Shown here piece after piece: positions 4,825-58,555 of a stretch of DNA of 64,000 nt (its first letter is position 1; every line of letters starts with the position of its first letter). The DNA lies in assembly GCA_024572335.1 (NCBI GenBank), contig GCA_024572335.1_3052.1; one strand, given 5' to 3'. A program made the translations under genes and the position numbers. This stretch comes from a phage. The notes beneath the pieces are model-generated. The model saw nothing but the letters and a program-made list of their open reading frames with translations, did not search any database and was not told where the DNA came from.

Positions 4825-5132
4825 CGGAAAGTCCCTGCAATTGGAATACTAACAATACGCCCAGTATCTAGAATTCGTTGATATAATCTTTGTGTATCTA
4901 CATCAGGCTTAACATGTTTAACTTCTATTTTATTAAACCAAAACTTGCGTGGAGTCTCAACTAGTCTTGGAATTCCCATACCTAAAGCTAGTTTATATTG
5001 GTCTTTGAGAGTAGTAAAAACTCTATCAGCAATCTCTCTTTCAAAAAACACAGCAGGACGATGTTCATCAAGTGGAACTGGCGCCGTAAATCCGTCTTTG
5101 TCTCGGTAAACTATCGCATATACATAAACCAT
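4821..5132 (-). CDS. Hypothetical protein (dda.1 position)
   Basis: 103 aa ATG ORF overlapping dda start by 4 nt. Confidence 0.5.
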   Translation of the reverse strand: MVYVYAIVYRDKDGFTAPVPLDEHRPAVFFEREIADRVFTTLKDQYKLALGMGIPRLVETPRKFWFNKIEVKHVKPDVDTQRLYQRILDTGRIVSIPIAGTFR

Positions 5133-5133
5133 A

Positions 5134-5880
5134 TTATCCTCGGATAAGTTTAAAAATTGAACAATTTAGCGGGTATCCTCTTTTCAGTTTAAGTTTATCA
5201 ATAAAAGACAAGTTTTGATACCGCTCTACACCTTGAATAATTTTATCACACATATCATATTGCATTTCTGCTTCTGACAACTTTTTCACAATTTTCCAAT
5301 CCGAGCCTTTAAGAAGAACGTTCAGTTTAACAACTTCAGCGCCTTCTGCTATGCGAGAACCATCAATACGAGCTTTAAGTGCTATAATCCTTAGCTTAAT
5401 GTCAGAGGTCTGTTTTGATTTAGAAAGCTGAGAAATGTGTTCAATTCGATTTTCACGCTTTTTCTGTATAGCTTTAATTTGATTATAAGTCTTTTTGATT
5501 TTAGCCCATTTCTTTTCATCTAAATTTAGTTTATGAACTTTTTTCGCAGATGAACGACCAATTCGCAAAGCAAATAAATCCCGTTTTTCAATCAACTCTT
5601 CTAAAGTATAATCAGAACGAAATGTATTATACTTTTTCTTTACTGCAATAACATTCCCTTTAATGTATCCAATGTTATTATCAAAACGTTCTAATGATAA
5701 TTTCTCTCCTTCAATACGATTATCAAAAGGTTCTCCCGAGTAAGCACAAACTTTTTGATCTAAAATGTTCTTAATGTAATTGAAGTCTAAGTTAAAATCT
5801 TTAGAACGTCTTTTTGCAGATGCCTGAGTATGCTCTAAACGACGTTTAATTTTACGAATTTGGTTATTAGACAGTTTCAT
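5134..5880 (-). CDS. Hypothetical protein at the T4 srd position
   Basis: 248 aa ATG ORF; size and position fit T4 Srd; sequence not independently recognised. Confidence 0.5.
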   Translation of the reverse strand: MKLSNNQIRKIKRRLEHTQASAKRRSKDFNLDFNYIKNILDQKVCAYSGEPFDNRIEGEKLSLERFDNNIGYIKGNVIAVKKKYNTFRSDYTLEELIEKRDLFALRIGRSSAKKVHKLNLDEKKWAKIKKTYNQIKAIQKKRENRIEHISQLSKSKQTSDIKLRIIALKARIDGSRIAEGAEVVKLNVLLKGSDWKIVKKLSEAEMQYDMCDKIIQGVERYQNLSFIDKLKLKRGYPLNCSIFKLIRG

Positions 5881-5996: not shown

Positions 5997-6599
5997 TTAT
6001 AGATTAAATCCTTCAAAATCAAGAGTATAGATAGTGTATGTTGAATACTTTTTATACTCATATCTATCTGCAATTCTAAATACACTTCCAGCTGGTATCA
6101 TTACTTCTTGTTCATCTGAAACTAATTCCATATTACGATAACGATGGCTATCCGGAAACTTAAAGTTTGGATTGTATTCTTTACAGCGTAGAGCTTTTAT
6201 AGCATACTCCTGGAAATTGAATACCATAGGAGCTTTGAATTCAAAAATAACTTGTGTGTTATACTCTAAACCAGAAGCAAAATGTAGAGCTATATTTTTA
6301 TCATATGAAGCTGATACGACTTTATCAAATGTAATAATATCAATTCCTTGATTTAACACCTGCTTAGTCTCGACTGGAACACCTCTCCAAAGAGGTTTAT
6401 CGTTTGGAACCAAACGAGATTTGATTATTTCATTTAACCAAGTATGGTCATCTGGTTTGTTGGTAATACAATGAATTAAAAGTTCAATTTCAGATAAATT
6501 AAACCCTTCAGAAAGTAATTCTTCACGAATAGAAGCACGCACCGATGCATCCATTGATTTTATTTTAAAATCTTTTAGTTGCATTACTGAGTATTTCAT
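5997..6599 (-). CDS. modA: ADP-ribosyltransferase ModA
   Basis: 200 aa; R (LWRG), S-x-S (VSASY) and E-x-E (DEQEVMIP) ART motifs; size and position as T4 ModA. Confidence 0.75.
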   Translation of the reverse strand: MKYSVMQLKDFKIKSMDASVRASIREELLSEGFNLSEIELLIHCITNKPDDHTWLNEIIKSRLVPNDKPLWRGVPVETKQVLNQGIDIITFDKVVSASYDKNIALHFASGLEYNTQVIFEFKAPMVFNFQEYAIKALRCKEYNPNFKFPDSHRYRNMELVSDEQEVMIPAGSVFRIADRYEYKKYSTYTIYTLDFEGFNL

Positions 6600-7219
6600 T
6601 CAACTACCTCAATATCATAAACTTTAAATGTTCCAAACGAATCGTGTAATTTTTCTTTTGAAATAGAAGTTATTTTATACTTTCCAATTGGAATCATCCA
6701 TTCTTGTTCACACACAATCATCATTAAGTTATCAGTTCTTTCTGAATCTAACCCGTCAGTATCTTCATACGTGTACTTAAACTCAGTATTAGGAGAAGAA
6801 AGTATAATATCGCTGATATGGTCAGAATAATTAAAAGCTTTATCAGTTTTTAAGCGAAAAATTATTTCAGTGAAATACTCAAAATAAGAAAAACCACATG
6901 CTGTGTGCAAACTAGTAGTAAATGAATCTACCCTGTTCGTTGAAAACACTTCTCCAACTTGTAAATCTTTAATAAGTTCTTCTGTTGATTTTGATATACC
7001 ACGATATAACTGATAAGGTGATTTAGTTAAATGCTTTTTAATGATTTTATTCAACTGCCGATGAAGAGCTTCATTCTTTTTGGCTTCCATACATTGCCAA
7101 AGAACAGACTGCTCAAAATCAGTAAATTTTTCACAGACCTTTTTATACATATCATATTGAAAATCAACGCTTTCAGCTTTTATAGATAACTGTTCAACAT
7201 CTGCAAGATTAATAATCAT
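6596..7219 (-). CDS. modB: ADP-ribosyltransferase ModB
   Basis: 207 aa; R (LYRG), S-T-x-S (FSTNRVDSFTTS), E-x-E (CEQEWMIP); strong SD GGAGG. Confidence 0.75.
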   Translation of the reverse strand: MIINLADVEQLSIKAESVDFQYDMYKKVCEKFTDFEQSVLWQCMEAKKNEALHRQLNKIIKKHLTKSPYQLYRGISKSTEELIKDLQVGEVFSTNRVDSFTTSLHTACGFSYFEYFTEIIFRLKTDKAFNYSDHISDIILSSPNTEFKYTYEDTDGLDSERTDNLMMIVCEQEWMIPIGKYKITSISKEKLHDSFGTFKVYDIEVVE

Positions 7220-11769: not shown

Positions 11770-11970
11770 ATGGTACAAAAATTAATGGCACTTGTTAATG
11801 CCATAAAAGGTAATAAGAAACGTATAGCTTTTACTATTTCTGCTATGATAGGAATTTTACTTTGGAATTTTGTTTTATCGCCAGTTGCTATTGCTCATGG
11901 CGTTAGTATTCCAGTAGTTACTCTTGATACATTCGTAGATTTAGCATTTGCTTTAGTTGGGTTAATTTAA
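11770..11970 (+). CDS. Small hydrophobic membrane protein, the only convincing plus-strand gene
   Basis: 66 aa; strong RBS AAAGGAGG 5 nt before ATG; predicted TM helix; stop codon overlaps gene 61 stop on the opposite strand. Confidence 0.5.
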   Translation: MVQKLMALVNAIKGNKKRIAFTISAMIGILLWNFVLSPVAIAHGVSIPVVTLDTFVDLAFALVGLI

Positions 11971-12995
11971 ATCTTAGCATATTTAGATAGCCGCATTTTA
12001 GCCATCAACCCCTGGGCAATATTATTTTTCATATATTCCATAATTTGTTCAGGGGTTGCACCTTCCTTTCTAATCATATCATTAACATCTTTTGATTTCC
12101 AGGGAGATTTATCCCAAAACATAACCCTTTCTCCTGCATCAACTAATTTAGTCATTCGTTTAATAGTGTCAGGGTGACGAGGTTCATTATCTAAGACCCA
12201 CACTCGTCTATCTTTAAATGGAACAACTTCTAGGTCTAATTGACCACCCGTAATAGCTATACCATTTTCAATAAAAAGTGAATCTATAGGTCCTTCTAGA
12301 ACATATACATCACCATCTTTGACTCGTTCGACTCCATAGATTTTTGTTGCCTCAGGATAAGCTTTGATGGTGATATATTTTTGAGGAGCATCTTTCTTTA
12401 ATGCACGTCCTTGAAAAGACTCAGCTTTTCCGTTAGCATTATAAATTGGAATAACAAGACGAGGCTCAGGTGTTTCCTTTTTATATGTTCCTGGAGCTAT
12501 ACTATTAACTAATTTAGGCCATTCAGTTGTAAACCAAAGATATTTCCATTTATCCTTTGGAATACAACGAGCTTTTACATATTTTATAATTGCATGGTCT
12601 TCCGCCAATTTATCTAATCTGATGCATGACGGAAGAGATTTAATTATTTTCTTCTCAGGTTGTTTAGGAAGTTCTTTAGGTTTTTCTACTGGACGACTTT
12701 TACCTTTTTCTTTTCTTATTTCAAAGATATACTCACGATATAAATCAGGTTCAAACTCCTTTAAATATATTCCGATTGGTGCATGATAGTTACAGTTATA
12801 ACAATGAATATTTCCTTCATTATTATCACCGTAATACCATCCACGGGCTTTATTCTGGTCGGTTTTTGAATCTCCACAAACAGGACATCTAAACCGTAAT
12901 TTAAAAGTTGAACTATTATTTACTTGTGTGAATTTAGGTAAATGAGCTAATGCACGGTATGCAAACTCATTATCAATCCAAGGTATTGATGACAT
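11967..12995 (-). CDS. 61: DNA primase gp61
   Basis: 342 aa; zinc ribbon CPVCGDSK...CYNC; TOPRIM-like EGPIDSL; adjacent to helicase 41 region. Confidence 0.9.
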   Translation of the reverse strand: MSSIPWIDNEFAYRALAHLPKFTQVNNSSTFKLRFRCPVCGDSKTDQNKARGWYYGDNNEGNIHCYNCNYHAPIGIYLKEFEPDLYREYIFEIRKEKGKSRPVEKPKELPKQPEKKIIKSLPSCIRLDKLAEDHAIIKYVKARCIPKDKWKYLWFTTEWPKLVNSIAPGTYKKETPEPRLVIPIYNANGKAESFQGRALKKDAPQKYITIKAYPEATKIYGVERVKDGDVYVLEGPIDSLFIENGIAITGGQLDLEVVPFKDRRVWVLDNEPRHPDTIKRMTKLVDAGERVMFWDKSPWKSKDVNDMIRKEGATPEQIMEYMKNNIAQGLMAKMRLSKYAKI

Positions 12996-12997
12996 TT

Positions 12998-13162
12998 TTA
13001 CTCTTCTTTTTCTTTAGATTCCTCTTTTTTCTTTTTAGGAATCTGTTCAGGACCTTTATTTACTACAGCGCCTGATGTTGTTCCAGTAGAGATATTTTCA
13101 GGACTACCACCTGAATCTCCAGCGACCATATTTTCTTTGATAAATTCTTTATATGTTTTCAT
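12998..13162 (-). CDS. Small low-complexity protein with capsid-targeting-like N-terminus
   Basis: 54 aa ORF not in track (below 60 aa); translated by hand: MKTYKEFIKENMVAGDSGGSPENISTGTTSGAVVNKGPEQIPKKKKEESKEKEE; stop 2 nt before gene 61 ATG. Confidence 0.35.
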   Translation of the reverse strand: MKTYKEFIKENMVAGDSGGSPENISTGTTSGAVVNKGPEQIPKKKKEESKEKEE

Positions 13163-13206
13163 ATTAACCTCTATTCATAAAAGCATTAAAAATTTGGTCA
13201 TCAATA
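13160..13206. repeat. Direct repeat copy A (3' end of the 118-aa gene plus next start codon)
   Basis: About 47 nt, roughly 90 percent identical to 13518..13564. Confidence 0.8.
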
Positions 13207-13520
13207 GATGGCGCAGTAATATTTTCTGCATCATTTAGCAAATCATTAATTTCATCAGATAGCATAACACACGTACCTTTATTTCCTGTAATTGTTACTG
13301 CACAATTACGAACGTTTTCTTTATCAAATTTTAGGTTAATATTTTCATAGTGAAAATCCTTTAATGCCGAATATATCTTTAAAATGAAATTGTCTTTTAC
13401 TACAATAAACCCAACCTCACTATTAAAACGCGGTTCATGGAAACTGTAATAAACCTTTTCATCTATAAAATCGTATGAAATTTTTTCCATTTTTAAATAT
13501 GAAAATTCAGAACTATACAT
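13164..13520 (-). CDS. Hypothetical protein (61.1/61.2 region)
   Basis: 118 aa ATG ORF; C-terminal SIDDQIFNAFMNRG duplicated from upstream gene. Confidence 0.5.
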   Translation of the reverse strand: MYSSEFSYLKMEKISYDFIDEKVYYSFHEPRFNSEVGFIVVKDNFILKIYSALKDFHYENINLKFDKENVRNCAVTITGNKGTCVMLSDEINDLLNDAENITAPSIDDQIFNAFMNRG

Positions 13521-13564
13521 ATTAACCTTTATTCATAAAAGCATTAAAAATTTGATCGTCAATA
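13518..13564. repeat. Direct repeat copy B (3' end of the 213-aa gene plus next start codon)
   Basis: Near-identical to 13160..13206; both encode IDDQIFNAFMN[RK]G-stop. Confidence 0.8.
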
Positions 13565-14154
13565 GAAACTTTTACTTTAGGCTGTTCTTCAAACGGTAAT
13601 TCATATCCACATATTACAATTTTGTGATCGATACCAAAATACACAGAAGCAATATTATTAATATTATTTTCAGTGAAATCTAAATCAACATCAATATCTT
13701 TTTGACTAACGCTCAAAGGATAATTAATACGAATAATTCGATTATCTTTAACAAAGATTCCACCGACATACTCTGTGCTGCGTTTAAAGTTTACACGTTT
13801 CCTAAATGAAAAATATTCAGGTTCTTTATGCGCTCGACTCATAGGGCTTAAAGTGTATTCCGAATATGAAATATCAAATCCTACACCTTCAATATGAGCC
13901 AACGTGTCATGATTAAACCAATTATAATCATATGCCAAATCCATTATATTGTAATATGTGAAAGGCACCGGATTAACATCATGTGTTGTACCTTTAAAAT
14001 CTGCCCAGGCAACGATTTCGTTATCTTTAACAATTACAAAAATTGTGCCAATAAGATATCCACGGTTATTTTCATCAGGCGTTATATTATAACATTGTGC
14101 ATCAGGAAATTTACCGTATTTAAACGGTGGATTTTTGTGCATATAATAAATCAT
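13522..14154 (-). CDS. Hypothetical protein (61.1/61.2 region)
   Basis: Track ORF 13522..14163 has GTG start; ATG at 14154; C-terminal SIDDQIFNAFMNKG. Confidence 0.5.
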   Translation of the reverse strand: MIYYMHKNPPFKYGKFPDAQCYNITPDENNRGYLIGTIFVIVKDNEIVAWADFKGTTHDVNPVPFTYYNIMDLAYDYNWFNHDTLAHIEGVGFDISYSEYTLSPMSRAHKEPEYFSFRKRVNFKRSTEYVGGIFVKDNRIIRINYPLSVSQKDIDVDLDFTENNINNIASVYFGIDHKIVICGYELPFEEQPKVKVSIDDQIFNAFMNKG

Positions 14155-14155
14155 A

Positions 14156-14449
14156 TTATTCACCTGTGATTTCAGTTACGATATTTTTGTTATTAAAGTT
14201 TTTATCGCAATACAAAACATAATTATACTGCATTACACCACCAGACTTAAGCTGTTTTTGTACTTCAGCTTTCATTTCAGGGCGATCACGCTCAACGATA
14301 TTCATAATATCTGCTTCAATCTGAGTTTCAACTTCAGTCTGATCCGCAGTCATAGACCATTCACACAAATCTTTATCATAACCTGCCATAGCAGGCTGAG
14401 CAGCACAAGAAGCTAAAGCAAAAATTGCAGCAAAAACAAATTTTTTCAT
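14156..14449 (-). CDS. sp: Periplasmic protein Spackle-like (Sp)
   Basis: 97 aa with cleavable signal peptide MKKFVFAAIFALASCAAQPAMA; size and position as T4 sp. Confidence 0.6.
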   Translation of the reverse strand: MKKFVFAAIFALASCAAQPAMAGYDKDLCEWSMTADQTEVETQIEADIMNIVERDRPEMKAEVQKQLKSGGVMQYNYVLYCDKNFNNKNIVTEITGE

Positions 14450-14476
14450 GATAATCTCCTCAGTAGTTTATGTTTA

Positions 14477-14507
14477 TATAGTATCTCAATTTCCAACAAA
14501 AGTAAAC
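14477..14507 (-). promoter_or_regulatory. Early promoter upstream of sp
   Basis: GTTTAC, 17 nt, TACTAT; SD GAGGAG. Confidence 0.55.
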
Positions 14508-14509
14508 AG

Positions 14510-14767
14510 TTATTTTAAAACTTCTGCATAATCACATGTTACAAACTGTTTCTCTAACTTGACGATTTTACGAAAGTATCTTTTGCATTGACGAATCTGT
14601 CGCTTCGTAGGACGTACAGCAAACTTAATAAATTCCACTCGACCAAATGGAGGACTTTCTTCTGCTGGAATATCTAACACCAATTCCCACGTATCTGCAA
14701 TAAGTGCTTTGAATTGAGTATTTTTCCTGACGTTATACGGAGTAGGTTTAAATAAAACAATATGCAT
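14510..14767 (-). CDS. Hypothetical protein (61.4 position)
   Basis: Track ORF 14510..14821 has TTG start; ATG at 14767 (MHIVLF) follows SD AGGA and abuts dmd stop. Confidence 0.45.
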   Translation of the reverse strand: MHIVLFKPTPYNVRKNTQFKALIADTWELVLDIPAEESPPFGRVEFIKFAVRPTKRQIRQCKRYFRKIVKLEKQFVTCDYAEVLK

Positions 14768-14768
14768 A

Positions 14769-14951
14769 TTATCCTCGGAAATCCACTTCGCACACTTTCT
14801 TGTCATCAATGAAAGCTTCAACTAATGCTTTATTAACTTCAGCATATTGAGTAGTAGCCCATTGAACGTCATCTTTCATCATTGTGATTTCTTTAGTAAA
14901 CATGCTTTCATTCTTAAACCACCCCATAAAAACTACCTTTACCAATTCCAT
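14769..14951 (-). CDS. dmd: Dmd-like antitoxin (discriminator of mRNA degradation)
   Basis: 60 aa, same length and position as T4 Dmd (gene 61.5) just downstream of gene 41; own early promoter. Confidence 0.6.
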   Translation of the reverse strand: MELVKVVFMGWFKNESMFTKEITMMKDDVQWATTQYAEVNKALVEAFIDDKKVCEVDFRG

Positions 14952-14980
14952 AACAATCTCCTCATTTAACCAACAAGACT

Positions 14981-15010
14981 ACTATACCATAGTCTTGTCA
15001 GCTTGTAAAC
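14981..15010 (-). promoter_or_regulatory. Early promoter upstream of dmd
   Basis: GTTTAC overlapping gene 41 stop, 17 nt, GTATAGT; SD GAGGAG. Confidence 0.55.
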
Positions 15011-16437
15011 TAAAATTTTAATTCATTCGCCAAAGCATCTAACTGAGCTCGAGCTGATTCATTTCTTTGATAGCGATTTTGCTCAGCCTGAATCTGTTGT
15101 GAACCTGCTACTTCGTTCACTTCGGTTGGAGTAGAATCTTGTTCAATTTCTACCCATTTCTGATTTCCTTTTTGAACACCCATCAAAAACTTATTCCACT
15201 TATTCTTATCGCCATATCGTGATTTGATTTGCTTAATGAGTTGTTGTTCAGCAGCTGCTAGCTCCTCGGTTTCAATGACCGCAAGCATAAAATCAGCTGT
15301 TGCTGGAAGACCAGCAGATTCTGCAATATCGCTCATGTTAACATCGGAAGAGTCCCAAGCTTGTTTACCAACCTGTGCTGCAGTCCAAAGAACGGTTTCG
15401 GTTTCAACAGCCAGAGCACGTAATTCCTCTGCAATAGCTTTAACAGTTGTGTAACTATTTTCTGAATAAACTCTAATGCGGCAAGATTTACAAATACCTA
15501 GATAGTCGACAATAATGATTGTTGGAACAAAATTCTTTTTGAGCTTCAATTCATTCAAGAGAGACCTGAATGTATTAGCGTCTGCTCCACCAGTAGGATA
15601 TTGTTTAACGATTAAACGACCGAGAGTAGATTTCTCACGCCATTTTTCCATTTTTCCTTTATACTCAGCGTAAGAAATATGCCCATCATCAATGTCATCA
15701 AGAGAAACATCAAGCATATTAGCATCAATACGCTTAGCACAGACTTCTTCTGCCATTTCCATGGAGATATAAAGAACGTTATGACCAAGCTGCAAATAAT
15801 CTGCTGCTAATGAACAAAGTCCTAATGATTTACCAACGTTAACACCAGCCATTAAAACGTTCAGTGTTCCAGTCTCAGCTCCGCCTTTAGTAATTTTGTT
15901 TAGAATTCTGAGTTTAAATGGAACCTTACGAGCTTTATTCATATAAGATAGCCAACGTGCTTCGTAGTCATCCATCCAATCATGACCAACGTAGCTATCA
16001 AATGAAATTGATAATGCTTGACGCATGATGTCAGGAATAGCACCAACATCCGGCATTTTCTTATTTCGTTTTTCCGGAGGAAGCTCAGCATTAGTTTGAA
16101 TTTCGATTATTTTAGACGTAGCATTAAACATTGCTCGTTGCTGAACATATTTTTCAGTTTCTTTTACTAACCAACTGTGATCTTCTGGAGAATCAACTAG
16201 TTTTGAAATAAGTGTTTTTACACCAGAATATTCTGTTTCAGTAAATGAACTATTTTCTAATGCAACAATTAACGCATTAATAGATGGAACGCTATGGTAC
16301 TCATTAACATGAGATTTAATTAATTTGAATGTATTTTTAGCTGGACCACTTTCAAAATATTCTGAATCCATATATGGCCAAACTTTTGAAAAATAAGCTT
16401 GATCAAATATGAGATGAGAAAGAATAATTTCTACCAC
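15010..16437 (-). CDS. 41: Replicative DNA helicase gp41 (DnaB family)
   Basis: 475 aa; Walker A GVNVGKS; GTG start with strong SD TAAGGAG. Confidence 0.9.
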   Translation of the reverse strand: MVEIILSHLIFDQAYFSKVWPYMDSEYFESGPAKNTFKLIKSHVNEYHSVPSINALIVALENSSFTETEYSGVKTLISKLVDSPEDHSWLVKETEKYVQQRAMFNATSKIIEIQTNAELPPEKRNKKMPDVGAIPDIMRQALSISFDSYVGHDWMDDYEARWLSYMNKARKVPFKLRILNKITKGGAETGTLNVLMAGVNVGKSLGLCSLAADYLQLGHNVLYISMEMAEEVCAKRIDANMLDVSLDDIDDGHISYAEYKGKMEKWREKSTLGRLIVKQYPTGGADANTFRSLLNELKLKKNFVPTIIIVDYLGICKSCRIRVYSENSYTTVKAIAEELRALAVETETVLWTAAQVGKQAWDSSDVNMSDIAESAGLPATADFMLAVIETEELAAAEQQLIKQIKSRYGDKNKWNKFLMGVQKGNQKWVEIEQDSTPTEVNEVAGSQQIQAEQNRYQRNESARAQLDALANELKF

Positions 16438-50931: not shown

Positions 50932-51144
50932 TCATTTTTGTCCTGTATTTACTTTATGCCGGTGCACGGCCTTAACTTTATCAAGGTATTTTTCAAAATT
51001 TCGCAATCTAGTATAGTCTGCCGGAGATTGGTTGAGTGATACTTCTCGACGCAAAGCTGAAATGATATTTCCAACTTCCCTACGAATTTCATCTAATTGA
51101 AGCACAGTAAGATTGCGAAGTTGCTTTTCAGTTAATTGTAGCAT
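50932..51144 (-). CDS. Hypothetical small protein
   Basis: 70 aa ATG ORF. Confidence 0.4.
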
Positions 51145-51186
51145 ATATACCCCTTTAGTTAGATAAACCTATTTATAACTTTTGCA

Positions 51187-51768
51187 CTAACCGAGCTTTT
51201 TAGTTAATTCGTTCCAGTGTTTTCTACACAAAGAAACATAAATTTCATCACCAATACAGATTTGATTACCTTCTTTAACTGGTGTTCCATCTTCCATTAA
51301 TCGAGCTGTCATAATCGCTTTTTTACCACAATGACAAACTGCCTTTAGTTCAATAAGTTTATCTGCAATCGCTAAAAGTTCTTTAGAACCTTCAAACAAT
51401 TTTCCAGCGAAATCAGTCCTTAATCCATAAGCCATAACAGGAACATTATATGTATCAACAATTCGGCTCAATTGATGCACTTGTTCAGTTTTTAAAAACT
51501 GAGCTTCATCTACAAATACACAATGAATATCTTTTTGTGCTTCAGCCCATTTATAGAACTCGAAAATATCCATATCATCTGTAATAATATTCGCTTCCTG
51601 CTTAATTCCAATGCGAGAAACAACTTCACAGACAGAATCGCGAGTATCAATAGCAGGCTTAAGAACTAATACACCCATTCCACGTTCTTTATAATTATGT
51701 GCAGCAGTCAAAAGAGAAGCAGATTTTCCAGCATTCATTGCTGCATAAGTAAAAATTAAACTCGCCAT
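51187..51768 (-). CDS. tk: Thymidine kinase
   Basis: 193 aa; P-loop MNAGKSASLL; C-terminal zinc-binding cysteines/His. Confidence 0.85.
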   Translation of the reverse strand: MASLIFTYAAMNAGKSASLLTAAHNYKERGMGVLVLKPAIDTRDSVCEVVSRIGIKQEANIITDDMDIFEFYKWAEAQKDIHCVFVDEAQFLKTEQVHQLSRIVDTYNVPVMAYGLRTDFAGKLFEGSKELLAIADKLIELKAVCHCGKKAIMTARLMEDGTPVKEGNQICIGDEIYVSLCRKHWNELTKKLG

Positions 51769-51777
51769 ATCACCTTC

Positions 51778-51963
51778 TTAAAGCGTATTCACATAAGCTA
51801 TTAATTCATTTTCTTTCTTATCAAACCGATCAGCAAATTCTTCCTGCTGTTCGGGAGATAGCGGGCCGTATTCATCATAAAAGGTGTTTGCTTCTGTATG
51901 CTCATCTAGAAGTTCATGGATAAGCTCAAACAATTTATCTTTTTGTTCTTTACTCAGACTCAT
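51778..51963 (-). CDS. Hypothetical small acidic protein
   Basis: 61 aa ATG ORF. Confidence 0.4.
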   Translation of the reverse strand: MSLSKEQKDKLFELIHELLDEHTEANTFYDEYGPLSPEQQEEFADRFDKKENELIAYVNTL

Positions 51964-52129
51964 ATATTAATTTCCAGGAGTTTTAAAATAATTCGCTTTT
52001 GCTTAAATATTTCCATAGTTAAATGATCAGTATCTTTTTGACCAATTCCAATGGCAAAACCTTTATTAGCAGCGAGTTCAATTAAATTATCAAGCTCACG
52101 TAACACTTCGTATTGTAACTCAAAACTAT

Positions 52130-52336
52130 TCATTTTGGTTTACCTTCTTTAACGAAATCTGGATAAGGATAAAATCCCGAATAAAATCCTTCACCTTTAT
52201 GATTGATACATCCTTTATTAGAACAATAGCACCAATAATCGAAATCACAAGTCATTTCATCGTTGCATAAAGCAAAAACAACCGGCCACTTACACTTTTC
52301 ACAGTGGGCATTTTTAAGAATGCTAGTTTGGCTCAT
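52130..52336 (-). CDS. Small Cys-rich protein
   Basis: Track ORF 52130..52357; ATG at 52336 follows AGGTGA; cysteine pattern CEKC...C...C...CYC...C. Confidence 0.4.
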   Translation of the reverse strand: MSQTSILKNAHCEKCKWPVVFALCNDEMTCDFDYWCYCSNKGCINHKGEGFYSGFYPYPDFVKEGKPK

Positions 52337-52545
52337 AACCATGTCACCTTTAAGCAATATTCTTCTACGTGCTGTTTACGACCTTTCTTATCAATAAAGG
52401 TATATTCAACGAATGTTCCAATGTAGTCTTTATCTACATCATGTGGACTATTAATTGGACATTTAGTACGGCAAATGCGTTCCCATTGACGAATAATTAC
52501 TGCTTTGTTTTTAGGATCAAACGGATGCGGGTAATGTACTTTCAT
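52333..52545 (-). CDS. Hypothetical small protein
   Basis: 70 aa ATG ORF. Confidence 0.4.
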   Translation of the reverse strand: MKVHYPHPFDPKNKAVIIRQWERICRTKCPINSPHDVDKDYIGTFVEYTFIDKKGRKQHVEEYCLKVTWL

Positions 52546-52996
52546 AATCCACCACTATTAAATCAATATCAGGAGTAAACATGTCAATTAATTTAGAAAC
52601 CTTATCCCAATCGCCGCCAGCGATACCACAACCTATGCGTGGAATGTAAATTACTGGTTTGAACAAAAGGGTTTCTGCCTGTAGATTTAATTCTATCATG
52701 CAGTTTACTAAAGCACCATAATCAAGATTAGGACCTGGTTCGTATTGCGTATACAGGTTATAGCATATACCAAATCCCGTAGGACTATGTTTAAAAACAA
52801 TAGACATATCGCCTAATTTATCACGAGAACCGTACTCAGTAGTGGTTTTATCTATTTCTAAAATTTTGGGATAGGCTCTTGCTAATTGACCCGCTACACC
52901 TGAACCCATAGTATGAAAACAATTGCACCCGTGCGCAATAATATTACCTTGAAGAAATAGGGCGACAATATCGCCCTTGATATATTTTACAATCAT
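52517..52996 (-). CDS. Macro domain protein (ADP-ribose binding/hydrolase fold)
   Basis: 159 aa; GDIV...NIIAHGCNC...GSGVAG and IPRIGCGIAGG motifs typical of macro domains. Confidence 0.65.
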   Translation of the reverse strand: MIVKYIKGDIVALFLQGNIIAHGCNCFHTMGSGVAGQLARAYPKILEIDKTTTEYGSRDKLGDMSIVFKHSPTGFGICYNLYTQYEPGPNLDYGALVNCMIELNLQAETLLFKPVIYIPRIGCGIAGGDWDKVSKLIDMFTPDIDLIVVDYESTLPASV

Positions 52997-53334
52997 CTAG
53001 TACTCAATCCTCGATTATAAGAATCTACCAAACGGTCAACCATTGAATGACAAGCGGCTTTATCTTTCTCCTCCGCAACTGAACATTCTAAGGTATTCCA
53101 CTTTTTAGCATATCGTTTTAACAATGTATCATTTTTGTATCTGCTTGATTTATCTCTTTCTCCGTCTTTATATGCATATATTAATTTCTGCGCAAATTCA
53201 GCTTGGCATGCTTTATTTTTCCCGCAATAATCCGCTGCAGTACGGTTTACATACTCTCTAATTTCAGTATATGATGTATCTGCTAACGCAGAAAATGAAA
53301 TTAATCCTATACATAAAACCAAAATTTTAGTCAT
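52993..53334 (-). CDS. Secreted/periplasmic protein
   Basis: 113 aa; signal peptide MTKILVLCIGLISFSALA; four conserved Cys. Confidence 0.45.
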   Translation of the reverse strand: MTKILVLCIGLISFSALADTSYTEIREYVNRTAADYCGKNKACQAEFAQKLIYAYKDGERDKSSRYKNDTLLKRYAKKWNTLECSVAEEKDKAACHSMVDRLVDSYNRGLSTR

Positions 53335-53872
53335 TTACTATTTCCAAAAGTTTATTATTTTTAAGGTAATTAGCCTTTTCTAGGACTTCAGAAGCATATT
53401 TAGAACCTGCTTTAACATTCCATCCCGAATTATAAGAGGATATTGCTTTTCTTATATCGCCCTTATGTATATTTAACCAATAAGAAAGTTCAATGTACGC
53501 CCAGGAAGCTGAATTGGACCGTTTATTCAACATTCTTTTTATTTCAGCATCGGTCATATTATAACCAAGTTCCTTAACTCTTGCTCGCATAGTAGGCAAA
53601 TAATTTTGGAACATTCCATAAGCGTGATGCTTTGGTTTAGATTTTAAATTAACTCCGCCAGAGCTTTCTTGCCATAAAATAGCAGCCATTATATGACCTA
53701 ATCCGCTCTTGTGGATATTTTTGTGTGTTTTATATTTTCCATCCTTAGAAAATTGTTCCCCGAATTGATACGCGTAACGCATGTTATCGAGTTGGACATT
53801 ACTGAAAGTATGCTCGGAGCTATGTGCCATCATTGAAATGGCCAATAGACCAGCGAGTAGTGCTTTTCTCAT
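53327..53872 (-). CDS. Secreted lytic transglycosylase-like (SLT domain) protein
   Basis: 181 aa; signal peptide; SLT-like ILWQESSGG ... GMFQ ... YNSG motifs. Confidence 0.55.
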   Translation of the reverse strand: MRKALLAGLLAISMMAHSSEHTFSNVQLDNMRYAYQFGEQFSKDGKYKTHKNIHKSGLGHIMAAILWQESSGGVNLKSKPKHHAYGMFQNYLPTMRARVKELGYNMTDAEIKRMLNKRSNSASWAYIELSYWLNIHKGDIRKAISSYNSGWNVKAGSKYASEVLEKANYLKNNKLLEIVND

Positions 53873-53879
53873 GCTTACC

Positions 53880-54341
53880 TCATTGAGTTTTAATTACTGC
53901 TTTAGAAGCCTTTCCTGGTAAACGACGACTGTTGATAATTGCCATCCTACATTGAAGTGACGGGTCTTTGAACTTCGCATTAGGTTTACAAACTGTAAAT
54001 CCAAGCCAAAGATTTCCATTTGTGATTTCTAAACGTCCAGGACGGTATTCAACCCCATCAATAAAATCCTCGTCAATGTCAGGACGCGGAGGCATACTCA
54101 GGAATTCATTAACTTCTAAAACATGGTCTTTTATTTTATGGAATAATTCAAAAACGTATGTCTCATCAATCTCCCGTTGAATTGCACGATCAAGAAGATG
54201 TTGAGAATATTTTAGATGAAACGATGAGACTCCTTCTGCTTTTGATGCTTCACGAATCTCATTGTTAATTTGACGAAACTCCGACTCAAAGTGACGACGA
54301 AGCTTATTTCGACGGATAAAAACTTCTGTATTGATAGTCAT
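53880..54341 (-). CDS. regB: Endoribonuclease RegB
   Basis: 153 aa as T4 RegB; position between tk-side ORFs and the lysozyme side; own early promoter and SD GGAG. Confidence 0.55.
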   Translation of the reverse strand: MTINTEVFIRRNKLRRHFESEFRQINNEIREASKAEGVSSFHLKYSQHLLDRAIQREIDETYVFELFHKIKDHVLEVNEFLSMPPRPDIDEDFIDGVEYRPGRLEITNGNLWLGFTVCKPNAKFKDPSLQCRMAIINSRRLPGKASKAVIKTQ

Positions 54342-54369
54342 GTTATTCTCCTCTTAACTGATAGAAAAA

Positions 54370-54398
54370 TTATACCACAGTCAAGAGGAAAAGTAAAC
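54370..54398 (-). promoter_or_regulatory. Early promoter upstream of regB
   Basis: GTTTAC, 17 nt, tgGTATAAT; SD GGAG. Confidence 0.55.
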
Positions 54399-54400
54399 AG

Positions 54401-54679
54401 TTATTCTTTAAATCTAATCAATTTATTCATAGACTTTGAAACTTCTGCACGAACCTCATGTAAGTTTTTAAGCTGTTCAAGACGCTGCTCATAGTAAGCA
54501 ATTTCATCTTCTTCGAGACAGTCCTGTGAATCTTCTTTAAGATAACGTGCATAGTCCTGAAAAGCTTTACGGACTACTTCCTGAAAGTCATCAAGACTTT
54601 GAATTTTCTTAGGAGCGGCAGATACACGACGAGGTGCAGTATAATACTCATAACCAAACCCTGCACTTAATTGAGCCAT
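54401..54679 (-). CDS. Hypothetical protein
   Basis: Track ORF 54401..54721 has GTG start; ATG at 54679. Confidence 0.4.
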
Positions 54680-54945
54680 TAGTATTTTTCCTCTGGTTGG
54701 AACACTGCACGACAAGCCCACATACTGGCTTCTTTGAGTTTCGTTTTAGCAATAGTTAACTGATCGAGGCTTTCAGCATAATTCTTCGCGAGTTCATAGT
54801 CTTCACAGCTATTAAATGCTTCCCAAAATTCATCGTATAAAGCATCAAAGATAAGTCCTAAACGAACTTCAGCGTCTTTGATAGCATTCACTTTACCGAT
54901 TTTCTCTTCAGTATGCGGCTTATAACTTTTAATGTCTTCAATCAT
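54679..54945 (-). CDS. Hypothetical protein
   Basis: Track ORF 54679..54981 has TTG start; ATG at 54945 follows SD GAGGAAG. Confidence 0.4.
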
Positions 54946-55159
54946 ATTTGACTTCCTCACCAGTACATAAATCATATTCAACTAAACGAATAGGTTCATG
55001 AATGCCATATCCTTGAACAGAAATTTCTGTCGTAGGATAAATTCCATCAATATCACCCATATTCCAGGCTTCGTTAAATTGCTGTTCGCCTGAATTACTA
55101 AACCACTCGGCGAAAGCATTTAGCACATCTTTAGAACCTTCAATAATTATCTTTGCCAT
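54938..55159 (-). CDS. Hypothetical small protein
   Basis: 73 aa ATG ORF. Confidence 0.4.
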   Translation of the reverse strand: MAKIIIEGSKDVLNAFAEWFSNSGEQQFNEAWNMGDIDGIYPTTEISVQGYGIHEPIRLVEYDLCTGEEVKYD

Positions 55160-55521
55160 TACAAACTCTCAGTAAAGGTACGAGCGATAACGTCGCGCTG
55201 CTGTTCCGGAGTCAGAGAGTTAAAGCGAACTGCATATCCGGATACACGGATGGTCAGCTGCGGATATTTTTCCGGATGCTTAACTGCATCTTCCAGAGTT
55301 TCGCGACGCAGAACGTTAACGTTCAGGTGTTGACCACCTTCAATTTTAACTGTAGGCTGTTGCTCAATTTCAATTTCACGGGCATGCAAACCGTAGAAAA
55401 TTTCTGGGTCTACAAAAGAGTCCTCTTTAAAGGTTTTGGAGACAATAATTCGTGCTTGAATACCATCTTCAAAATAAATAGTACCTTTATGTGTGCCTTC
55501 AAGAATTTGATATGCTTTCAT
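55159..55521 (-). CDS. Autonomous glycyl radical cofactor-like protein (GrcA/YfiD-like)
   Basis: 120 aa; glycyl radical signature [11 protein letters not shown] near C-terminus. Confidence 0.6.
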
Positions 55522-56394: not shown

Positions 56395-56535
56395 TTTATT
56401 CTCTCTAGGTTTGGGCCATTCCGTGGCGCATGAATTGTCCATTTCTGTATTTACCCATTACCGCACTTGGGCTCGACCTTATTACAGGTTGGCGGGAATC
56501 CCTCATAGAATCATGAGGTCCAGTTTGTTCCCATA

Positions 56536-57009
56536 TTATTTGAACGATTTAACGTACTGAATAGAACCCTTACTATTCACAAAGGCAATTTTACCATTTT
56601 TATTATACATGGTAGCAGTACGCTGATAACCATAGGTTTGTTTACCAGATTGATAACCAACTAATGCAAAATTATCTTCACCCATTTTATTCTGTTTAGC
56701 GCGAATGCGTTCATGACCATGTGCCATAAGAACCTTAGCATCACCAGTTGCAATGGATCGACGAGTTTTTTCATCTTCAACTGCATTAACAAAGTCGTCA
56801 AATGAATCAAATTTAGCATGAGATTTATTATACAATTTTCCATCTACTGCATAATTATATCCCTGTACATCCATCTCAACTTCTGTACCATCATCCAATA
56901 CAGCAGTAATTTTTTGACCTTTTTTAAATTTCAAAAGATCAGTAAAAGATTCAGCAATAATTTGAGAATTAATAGCTGCTTCAGTGATAAATTCTTGATA
57001 TGTTTTCAT
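56536..57009 (-). CDS. Internal protein (IP) with capsid targeting sequence
   Basis: 157 aa; N-terminal MKTYQEFITEA matches the T4 IP capsid-targeting decapeptide; located just downstream of e as T4 ipIII/ipII. Confidence 0.6.
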   Translation of the reverse strand: MKTYQEFITEAAINSQIIAESFTDLLKFKKGQKITAVLDDGTEVEMDVQGYNYAVDGKLYNKSHAKFDSFDDFVNAVEDEKTRRSIATGDAKVLMAHGHERIRAKQNKMGEDNFALVGYQSGKQTYGYQRTATMYNKNGKIAFVNSKGSIQYVKSFK

Positions 57010-57060
57010 GGGTTTCCTTTAAATATTTTAATTAGTAATTTGTCTCTTCAAGCAACTGTG

Positions 57061-57093
57061 AATATACTATCACAATTCTAGGAGAAAGTAAAC
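57061..57093 (-). promoter_or_regulatory. Early promoter upstream of the IP gene
   Basis: GTTTAC, 17 nt, GATAGTATAT. Confidence 0.5.
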
Positions 57094-57097
57094 AACT

Positions 57098-58066
<969 letters not shown>

Positions 58067-58085
<19 letters not shown>

Positions 58086-58555
58086 TCAGTGATAAAGTTA
58101 TTTAAATTTTGAGTGTATTTCTTTTCATCAAAAATCTTTTGCTGTCTGCGTAGCCGCCATGGCATTTCAATGAACACGCACCATATCCCAGATAATATTG
58201 CTGCAGTAAAAATATTAACAAGTATGGTTAAAAGAATCCAATCTCCTATTCTGTCCATTGGATTTTTTATAAAAAAGTAAAATACGAATGATGTCACAGG
58301 AAGACTAATAATATACCACAGAATCATAATTTTATCTGTGAACCAATCAGCGTTCGTTAACTTAGCGCGACCATTATGAATACACACGAATTTATCATCT
58401 GTTATAATAGATGGCTTAGCTGCTTGATATCCCATTCTAAACTCACTAATCAACAAATTTTTCATATCTTCGGAACAACCATTCCAGTCAACTCTATCAA
58501 CTGAAATGCCATCATCCCCATCATCTAAATCATACCAGCGAGTTTTTAAAATCAT
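58067..58555 (-). CDS. Membrane protein
   Basis: 162 aa; two predicted TM helices. Confidence 0.45.

Follow-up and report, generated by a model that had tools for sequence, protein, structure and literature searches.

The stand-alone macrodomain gene tk.4 (adfM) of a T4-like phage probably encodes an ADP-ribosyl hydrolase of the ALC1/TARG1-like class that reverses DarT2 marks on phage DNA. The gene (52517 to 52996, minus strand) starts with ATG and encodes a single-domain macrodomain protein of 159 aa; it lies in the window, by which we mean the whole 64-kb stretch of phage DNA analyzed here. Our comparisons indicate that the window allele most likely protects its phage from DarTG2. The gene, its macro (A1pp) annotation (since the mid-2000s), and the role of the T4 ortholog (2025) are already published.

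The T4 ortholog provides the phenotype. In a HIDEN-SEQ transposon screen on a DarTG2 host, tk.4 was the single T4 gene that became essential, and a clean T4 tk.4 deletion was DarTG2 sensitive, with the gene being renamed adfM (bioRxiv 10.1101/2025.11.20.689424). Hydrolysis of ADP-ribosylated DNA by T4 AdfM was proposed in that study from structural similarity to DarG alone (bioRxiv 10.1101/2025.11.20.689424). T4 without adfA and adfN stays resistant to DarTG2 (PMC11825919), and a further factor was therefore predicted. The sequence-only reading of this DNA had listed the countering of host ADP-ribosylating defenses among several possible roles, and the sensitivity of the T4 tk.4 deletion to DarTG2 (bioRxiv 10.1101/2025.11.20.689424) matches that suggestion.

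The tk.4 gene, its neighborhood, and its family

The source phage is assigned to Tequatrovirus (T4-like), and the region shares 98.7% identity with phages MLF4 and Sf24. We identified the ORF at 52517 to 52996 as the syntenic ortholog of T4 tk.4 (adfM, "anti-DarT factor macrodomain") because it is placed between vs and tk.3 and is homologous over its full length to T4 Tk.4 (NP_049723; about 57 to 58% identity, E = 1e-70). Upstream lies vs, encoding the valyl-tRNA synthetase modifier (52993 to 53334, minus strand; from the ORF list, PHROG 1256, 97% to T4 Vs), and downstream lies tk.3 (52333 to 52545, minus strand; Pfam DUF7202, 8e-39; 96% to T4 Tk.3). The gene sits within a co-directional, tightly packed block (regB, vs.1, vs, tk.4, tk.3, ..., tk), and the order from regB to tk.3 is the same in T4 and MLF4. 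The tk.4 start and the vs stop codon share bases (ATGA), which suggests cotranscription and translational coupling of vs and tk.4, and tk.3 starts 29 nt within the 3' end of tk.4; such overlaps are typical of T4 gene packing. In the HIDEN-SEQ preprint, vs is reported to have the strongest conditional essentiality of any T4 gene when the host grows in minimal medium (bioRxiv 10.1101/2025.11.20.689424). Polar effects of vs insertions on tk.4 expression may be worth considering.

Scans of positions 51000 to 55500 were uninformative for promoters (17 promoter-like sites versus 16.5 expected) and for terminators, as the terminator-like hairpins fall within coding sequence. A perfect GC-rich hairpin, AGGGCGATATTGTCGCCCT (52959 to 52977), occurs in the 5' end of tk.4 (codons K7-GDIVAL) and is terminator-like on both strands. 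This hairpin, AGGGCGATATTGTCGCCCT, could have arisen by chance as a palindrome or could form an RNA structure by the translationally coupled start.

Proteins 100% identical to the window protein are on deposit for phages PBM-1 and vB_EcoM_OE5505, and the protein matches PHROG 335 (1.2e-71). Homologs of Tk.4 were found in 2,860 of 50,697 phage records covering many host genera, so the family has spread well past T4-like phages. A bacterial member, 40% identical, stands alone among housekeeping genes on the chromosome of Pelagimonas phthalicica (5001 to 5459 of the examined stretch). Checking the origin of the family, we found that neither darT nor any other toxin gene lies within 5 kb of this homolog. 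The Tk.4 family is thus not restricted to phages or toxin-antitoxin loci. About 41% of myoviruses are reported to carry macrodomains (PMC9503650). When the 64-kb window was scanned in six frames with the family HMM, no second macro gene was found.

The assignment of the ORF to the macrodomains, also made in the sequence-only reading, held in full. Its four motifs (KGDIVAL, NIIAHGCNC, GSGVAG, and IGCGIAGG) are all present, and the protein exceeds the Pfam threshold for Macro PF01661 (32 bits versus a cutoff of 22; E = 1.3e-7; profile positions 2 to 117 of 118). An AlphaFold2 model built with 106 homologs reached a mean pLDDT of 94 and a pTM of 0.89, a confident macro fold, and the predicted structure shows the three-layer alpha/beta architecture with a GxG phosphate-binding loop. 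The top Foldseek matches of the model were human TARG1/OARD1 and yeast Poa1p (TM, 0.72 to 0.75). By structure and by sequence, the protein is nearer to TARG1, DarG, SCO6735, ALC1, and Poa1p than to the MacroD, PARG, and viral macro types. The Tk.4 family profile matched BT1257 (7e-19), TARG1 (2e-16), SCO6735 (1e-15), and DarG (2e-11), and DarG was both the sole PADLOC match and the best NCBIfam match of the window protein. The protein thus belongs to the Macro superfamily, the ALC1/TARG1-like class, and the Tk.4/AdfM orthologous group.

Active site and comparison with known macrodomains

Four segments of the gene carry family-invariant residues. The A21-H22-G23-C24-N25-C26 codons (52919 to 52936, minus strand) contain the conserved macro Asn, N25, and all 106 family members retain H22, G23, N25, and C26. 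In our alignments, N25 is equivalent to DarG N22 and PhiKZ AdfM N23, and H22 is equivalent to Poa1p H23 and TARG1 H32; activity is reduced in the PhiKZ AdfM N23A mutant (PMC13309987). The phosphate-binding loop (GxG), G31-S-G-V-A-G36 (52889 to 52906, minus strand; G33 and A35 invariant in 106 members), aligns with "MGKGIA" of DarG and "MGAGIA" of TARG1. The N80-L-Y-T-Q84 codons (52745 to 52759, minus strand; profile and MAFFT alignments) encode N80, Y82, and Q84, all of them invariant in the 106 members, down to about 38% identity. The substrate-binding loop, P119-R-I-G-C-G-I-A-G-G-D-W130 (52607 to 52642, minus strand), has invariant P119, G122, G124, and W130. All family-invariant residues are also found in T4 Tk.4, including H22, N25, Q84, G122, G124, and W130.

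Profile and MAFFT alignments agree in placing Q84 at the position of the catalytic Lys (DarG K80 and TARG1 K84) and A126 at that of the TARG1 catalytic D125. The same alignment position is occupied in SCO6735 of Streptomyces coelicolor by Gln85, which is essential, i.e., the Q85A and Q85E mutants are inactive (PMC9411070). The substitution of Gln for Lys is no contradiction, because SCO6735 with its Gln85 cleaves thymidine-linked ADP-ribose; on the same grounds we rejected the interpretations that Q84 marks an inactive "reader" domain or conflicts with the anti-DarTG2 phenotype. The substrate-binding loop is nearly identical to that of SCO6735, "PRIGCGLAGGTW" (PRIGCGLAGGxW), and the combination of a PRIGCG[IL]AGG loop with Q84 matches both SCO6735 and BT1257. 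From these alignments, the chemistry is probably of the SCO6735 type rather than of the Lys-dependent DarG/TARG1 type.

SCO6735 (PDB 5E3B) and BT1257 of Bacteroides (2FG1/2AFC) are about 26 to 29% identical to the window protein and share with it the Gln at the catalytic-Lys position and the absence of the TARG1 Asp (Q84 and A126 here). They differ from it in the long mobile loop, which is absent here; compared with the Tk.4 profile, BT1257 carries six additional residues following "Q-x-x-x-G." A mobile loop about five residues longer than that of TARG1/DarG defines the SCO6735/BT1257 subclass (PMC9411070), and the window protein, lacking it, is not a full member. SCO6735 and TARG1 are basic, whereas the window protein is phage encoded and acidic (net charge, -5; pI 5.0). 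We dropped the acidic charge as an argument against DNA binding, since PhiKZ AdfM, whose activity has been shown biochemically, is just as acidic.

The DarG macrodomain (M. tuberculosis, 5M3I; T. aquaticus, 5M31/5M3E) has K80 where the window protein has Q84, and its "NFPTKKHW" and "LGVGNGGLDW" segments contrast with "NLYTQYEP" and "IGCGIAGGDW" here. DarG also has a C-terminal DarT-binding domain, which the 159-aa window protein lacks. DarG models were matched only at positions 2 to 142 of 338 (NCBIfam) and 3 to 144 of 329 (PADLOC), and the score against the DarG equivalog (NCBIfam NF048014) was 27.7 bits, against a cutoff of 250. The genes next to tk.4 are vs and tk.3, with no darT beside it. 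On the basis of the score, the missing DarT-binding domain, the lack of K80, and the absence of an adjacent darT, we rejected the identification of the window protein as DarG itself. Judged by this analysis, it most likely works like both DarG and SCO6735/BT1257.

PhiKZ gp104, which is also named AdfM, is likewise a phage-encoded, stand-alone, acidic macrodomain, and it protects its phage from DarTG2 (PMC13309987, Cell Rep 2026). It differs in keeping the DarG-type Lys ("FPTKDNW") and an "LGCANGGLD" loop, and among the references compared it lies farthest from the Tk.4 profile (32 bits). Because of these features, the sequences suggest that PhiKZ AdfM arose when a DarG-like macrodomain was recruited on a separate occasion and that it is not an ortholog. 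The two AdfM proteins would then have apparently different active-site chemistry (Gln in T4-like phages and Lys in PhiKZ), which matters for predicting or engineering DarTG2 resistance. The "AHGCNC" His is conserved in both TARG1 and Poa1p; TARG1 (4J5R/4J5S) differs in its catalytic dyad, K84/D125, which is Q84/A126 here, and Poa1p (6LFQ) differs in being a small-molecule phosphatase with extra insertions. T4 Tk.4 itself resembles the window protein in its position between vs and tk.3 and in its length class (155 aa versus 159 aa in the window) and differs in its loop, IGAGIGKGNW versus IGCGIAGGDW (the family consensus), and in lacking the four extra C-terminal residues of the window protein.

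Reversal of DarT2 modification and alternative roles

Biochemical work on other macrodomains supports the removal of DarT2 marks as the function. SCO6735, a stand-alone ALC1-like macrodomain, cleaves thymidine- but not guanine-linked ADP-ribose on DNA, outpaces both DarG and TARG1 on this substrate, and is sufficient by itself to rescue E. coli from DarT (PMC9411070). All three enzymes (i.e., SCO6735, TARG1, and DarG) remove thymidine-linked ADP-ribose (PMC9411070), and PhiKZ gp104 (AdfM), an unrelated phage macrodomain, strips DarT2-made ADP-ribose from DNA in vitro (PMC13309987). Under the proposed mechanism, when E. coli carrying DarTG2 is infected, DarT2 would ADP-ribosylate thymidine N3 in single-stranded phage DNA and replication would be blocked. 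The macrodomain would bind ADP-ribose with two loops, GSGVAG and PRIGCGIAGGDW, and hydrolyze the N-glycosidic bond between ribose and thymine; Q84 would place the substrate and a water molecule in position, in line with the proposal for SCO6735. Unmodified DNA would be restored for replication, and free ADP-ribose would be released. We infer that Tk.4-family proteins are catalytic, that Q84 has this role, and that the window allele behaves like the T4 allele.

Two features of the Tk.4 family speak against this hydrolase model: the lack of the DarG/TARG1 catalytic Lys and the lack of the 5- to 6-residue-longer "mobile loop," which the authors of the SCO6735 study tied to high DNA activity. The distribution of the family in phages agrees with the model in one case. 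The DarTG2-sensitive phage T5 has no detectable Tk.4 homolog (best score, 9.3 bits, versus 223 bits for the window control), and neither the Tk.4 profile nor DarG, TARG1, or SCO6735 as queries detected an ALC1-like macrodomain in it. The lack of a homolog is consistent with the reported DarTG2 sensitivity of T5, as a single-phage correlation. The same T5 record contains, at 56447 to 58094, two genes annotated as Sir2 (T5.102 and T5.105).

The alternative that fares best, although we consider it improbable, is that DarT2 is neutralized mainly by stoichiometric binding (as with AdfA/AdfB) or by occupation of modified DNA, with catalysis being dispensable. Catalytically dead SCO6735 Q85A, DarG K80A, and TARG1 K84A do inhibit DarT in vitro, SCO6735 most strongly (PMC9411070), and the absence of the DarG catalytic Lys from the Tk.4 family would fit such a role, as would the rapid divergence of the surface-exposed C-terminal two-thirds of the protein, which is expected of an arms-race protein-protein interface. 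However, family members down to about 38% identity all retain the pocket residues H22, N25, G33, Q84, G122, G124, and W130, and this invariance of the ligand pocket suggests that substrate binding and catalysis are under selection; the DarG-like C-terminal DarT-binding domain is also missing from the window protein. The protein might also inhibit DarT2 stoichiometrically, in addition to the hydrolysis that we favor.

Somewhat less probable is a small-molecule enzyme, either an ADP-ribose-1''-phosphate phosphatase (Poa1p-like) or an O-acetyl-ADP-ribose deacetylase, that disposes of NAD-derived by-products arising from RNA repair or sirtuin activity. Annotations point in this direction: in GenBank, T4 tk.4 is "phosphatase; Tk.4; contains A1pp phosphatase motif," a label derived from a CDD match, and TARG1 is deposited as "O-acetyl-ADP-ribose deacetylase 1." An A1pp domain in the tk.4 orthologs of T4-like genomes was reported in 2006 (PMC1524935). 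The "phosphatase" label, however, rests on the name of a domain and not on an assay. Searches by sequence and by structure both place yeast Poa1p among the best matches, and its H23 and S30 align with H22 and T29 (H23, S30, and F152 were picked from the names of deposited mutants only). Against these resemblances, the sole known phenotype of an ortholog is DarTG2 sensitivity, and no KptA/Tpt1 or sirtuin gene adjoins tk.4. To our knowledge, moreover, T4 tRNA repair (Pnk and Rnl1) leaves no 2'-phosphate and hence neither Appr>p nor Appr-1''-p.

A shade lower again we place the idea that the protein acts mainly on ADP-ribose linked to uracil in RNA or to phosphate ends, or on ADP-ribose-derived immune signals of the Thoeris kind. 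In the literature considered, we met no bacterial defense that produces uracil-linked ADP-ribose. Possession of tk.4 does not spare T4 from restriction by CmdTAC, an mRNA ADP-ribosyltransferase, and the adenine modification made by CmdTAC is described as irreversible; we examined the CmdTAC paper for reversal by macrodomains and found nothing relevant. No data tie the ALC1/TARG1-like class to cyclic ADP-ribose signals, and the earlier suggestion that the protein degrades ADP-ribose-derived signals gained no support in this analysis.

The least probable role by our estimate, and a very doubtful one, is that the macrodomain erases or reads the phage's own marks (those placed by Alt, ModA, and ModB on RNA polymerase alpha, ribosomal protein S1, EF-Tu, and others), thereby making them reversible. 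The sequence-only reading had pointed to ModA and ModB in the same window, and both are indeed present there (modA, 5997 to 6599, minus strand; modB, 6596 to 7219, minus strand; both PHROG 832). Macrodomains are generally erasers or readers of ADP-ribose (PMC9503650), and SCO6735 and TARG1 act on some protein substrates too. These protein substrates are Glu/Asp linked, however, and the characterized enzymes of the class cleave thymine/uracil-N3-linked and Glu/Asp-linked ADP-ribose (PMC9411070 and PMC13036486), whereas the products of ModB are arginine N-glycosides, which are removed by ARH1 but not by ARH3 or by NH2OH, which cleaves Glu/Asp esters (PMC10468400). According to a review, ModA modifies RNA polymerase alpha at Arg265, and the arginine-ADP-ribose hydrolases covered in it belong to the DraG/ARH family and are not macrodomains (PMC8120803). 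In addition, modA and modB lie about 45 kb from tk.4 in a different gene block, and Tk.4 homologs reach far beyond T4-like phages. Our literature search found no assay of Tk.4 on ModA or ModB products. Given arginine-linked marks on one side (PMC10468400; review, PMC8120803) and thymine/uracil and Glu/Asp linkages on the other, the functional link to ModA/ModB was not supported; the macrodomain itself and, through the T4 ortholog, the countering of a host ADP-ribosylating defense are the parts of the sequence-only reading that stood.

Allelic divergence at tk.4 and other loci in the window

The tk.4 gene diverges far more from T4 than most of its neighbors do. A sliding-window comparison revealed a divergence island over the C-terminal two-thirds of the gene (52540 to 52890, minus strand), with 37 to 72% nucleotide identity to T4 between flanks of 97 to 100%; identity recovers within the 5' end of tk.4. 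Among eight neighboring proteins compared, seven are 96 to 100% identical to their T4 counterparts (rI, 99%; rI.1, 100%; tk, 99%; tk.3, 96%; vs, 97%; vs.1, 100%; regB, 98%); the other is encoded by a tk.2-like ORF (51778 to 51963, minus strand; 54%), and Tk.4 itself is at 57%. The residues that differ from T4 Tk.4 (43%) are concentrated at about positions 45 to 159. Phage databases contain a graded series of tk.4 alleles, with 100, 95, 75, 62, and 58% identity and lower. Sharp divergence between near-identical flanks, as read from the alignment, fits recombinational allele replacement and conflict-driven turnover.

Because 43% of the positions differ, including the region of the substrate-binding loop, the specificity of the window allele could differ from that of the T4 allele; as the alleles diverge, the T4 phenotype is carried over to the window allele by inference only. 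With tk.4 diverging far more than most neighbors, the DarTG2 sensitivity of therapeutic T4-like phages is not predictable from T4 alone. We also entertain, as unlikely on present evidence, a broader scheme in which the tk.4 locus is an allele-swapping hot spot for macrodomain cassettes of different specificity. The window allele would then be tuned to another DarT2 variant or to another linkage (uracil linked on RNA or Glu/Asp linked on protein), and T4-type AdfM (Gln active site and short loop) would represent a third mechanism among hydrolases of thymidine-linked ADP-ribose, and its recruitment would have been independent of that of the Lys-type AdfM in PhiKZ.

The stretch from tk to tk.3 (51778 to 52357, minus strand) also differs from T4, and T4 tk.1 is absent. 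Two of its ORFs have no T4 counterpart in a blastn comparison: one of 57 aa (51960 to 52133; PHROG 3452) and one of 75 aa with a TTG start (52130 to 52357; PHROG 2306), whose product is Cys-rich ("CEKCKW...CDFDYWCYCSNKGC"). Together with tk.4, this stretch marks a small hyperplastic region.

Two further loci of the window were recorded. An ortholog of NudE/e.1, a Nudix hydrolase, is encoded at 57630 to 58085 (minus strand; Pfam NUDIX, 8.5e-14; PHROG 1185). T4 NudE is reported to hydrolyze free ADP-ribose (PMC9503650 and a reference cited in PMC1524935). Speculatively, NudE could dispose of the ADP-ribose freed by the macrodomain.

A gap of about 2 kb (12996 to 15009, minus strand) separates a 342-aa ORF (11967 to 12995) from a 475-aa ORF (15010 to 16437), which, from their lengths, we take to be the primase gp61 and the helicase gp41. 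The gp61 and gp41 genes are presumably adjacent in T4, and the gap may be an insertion relative to T4. It holds a 213-aa ORF (13522 to 14163) that matches PHROG 3781 (4e-134).
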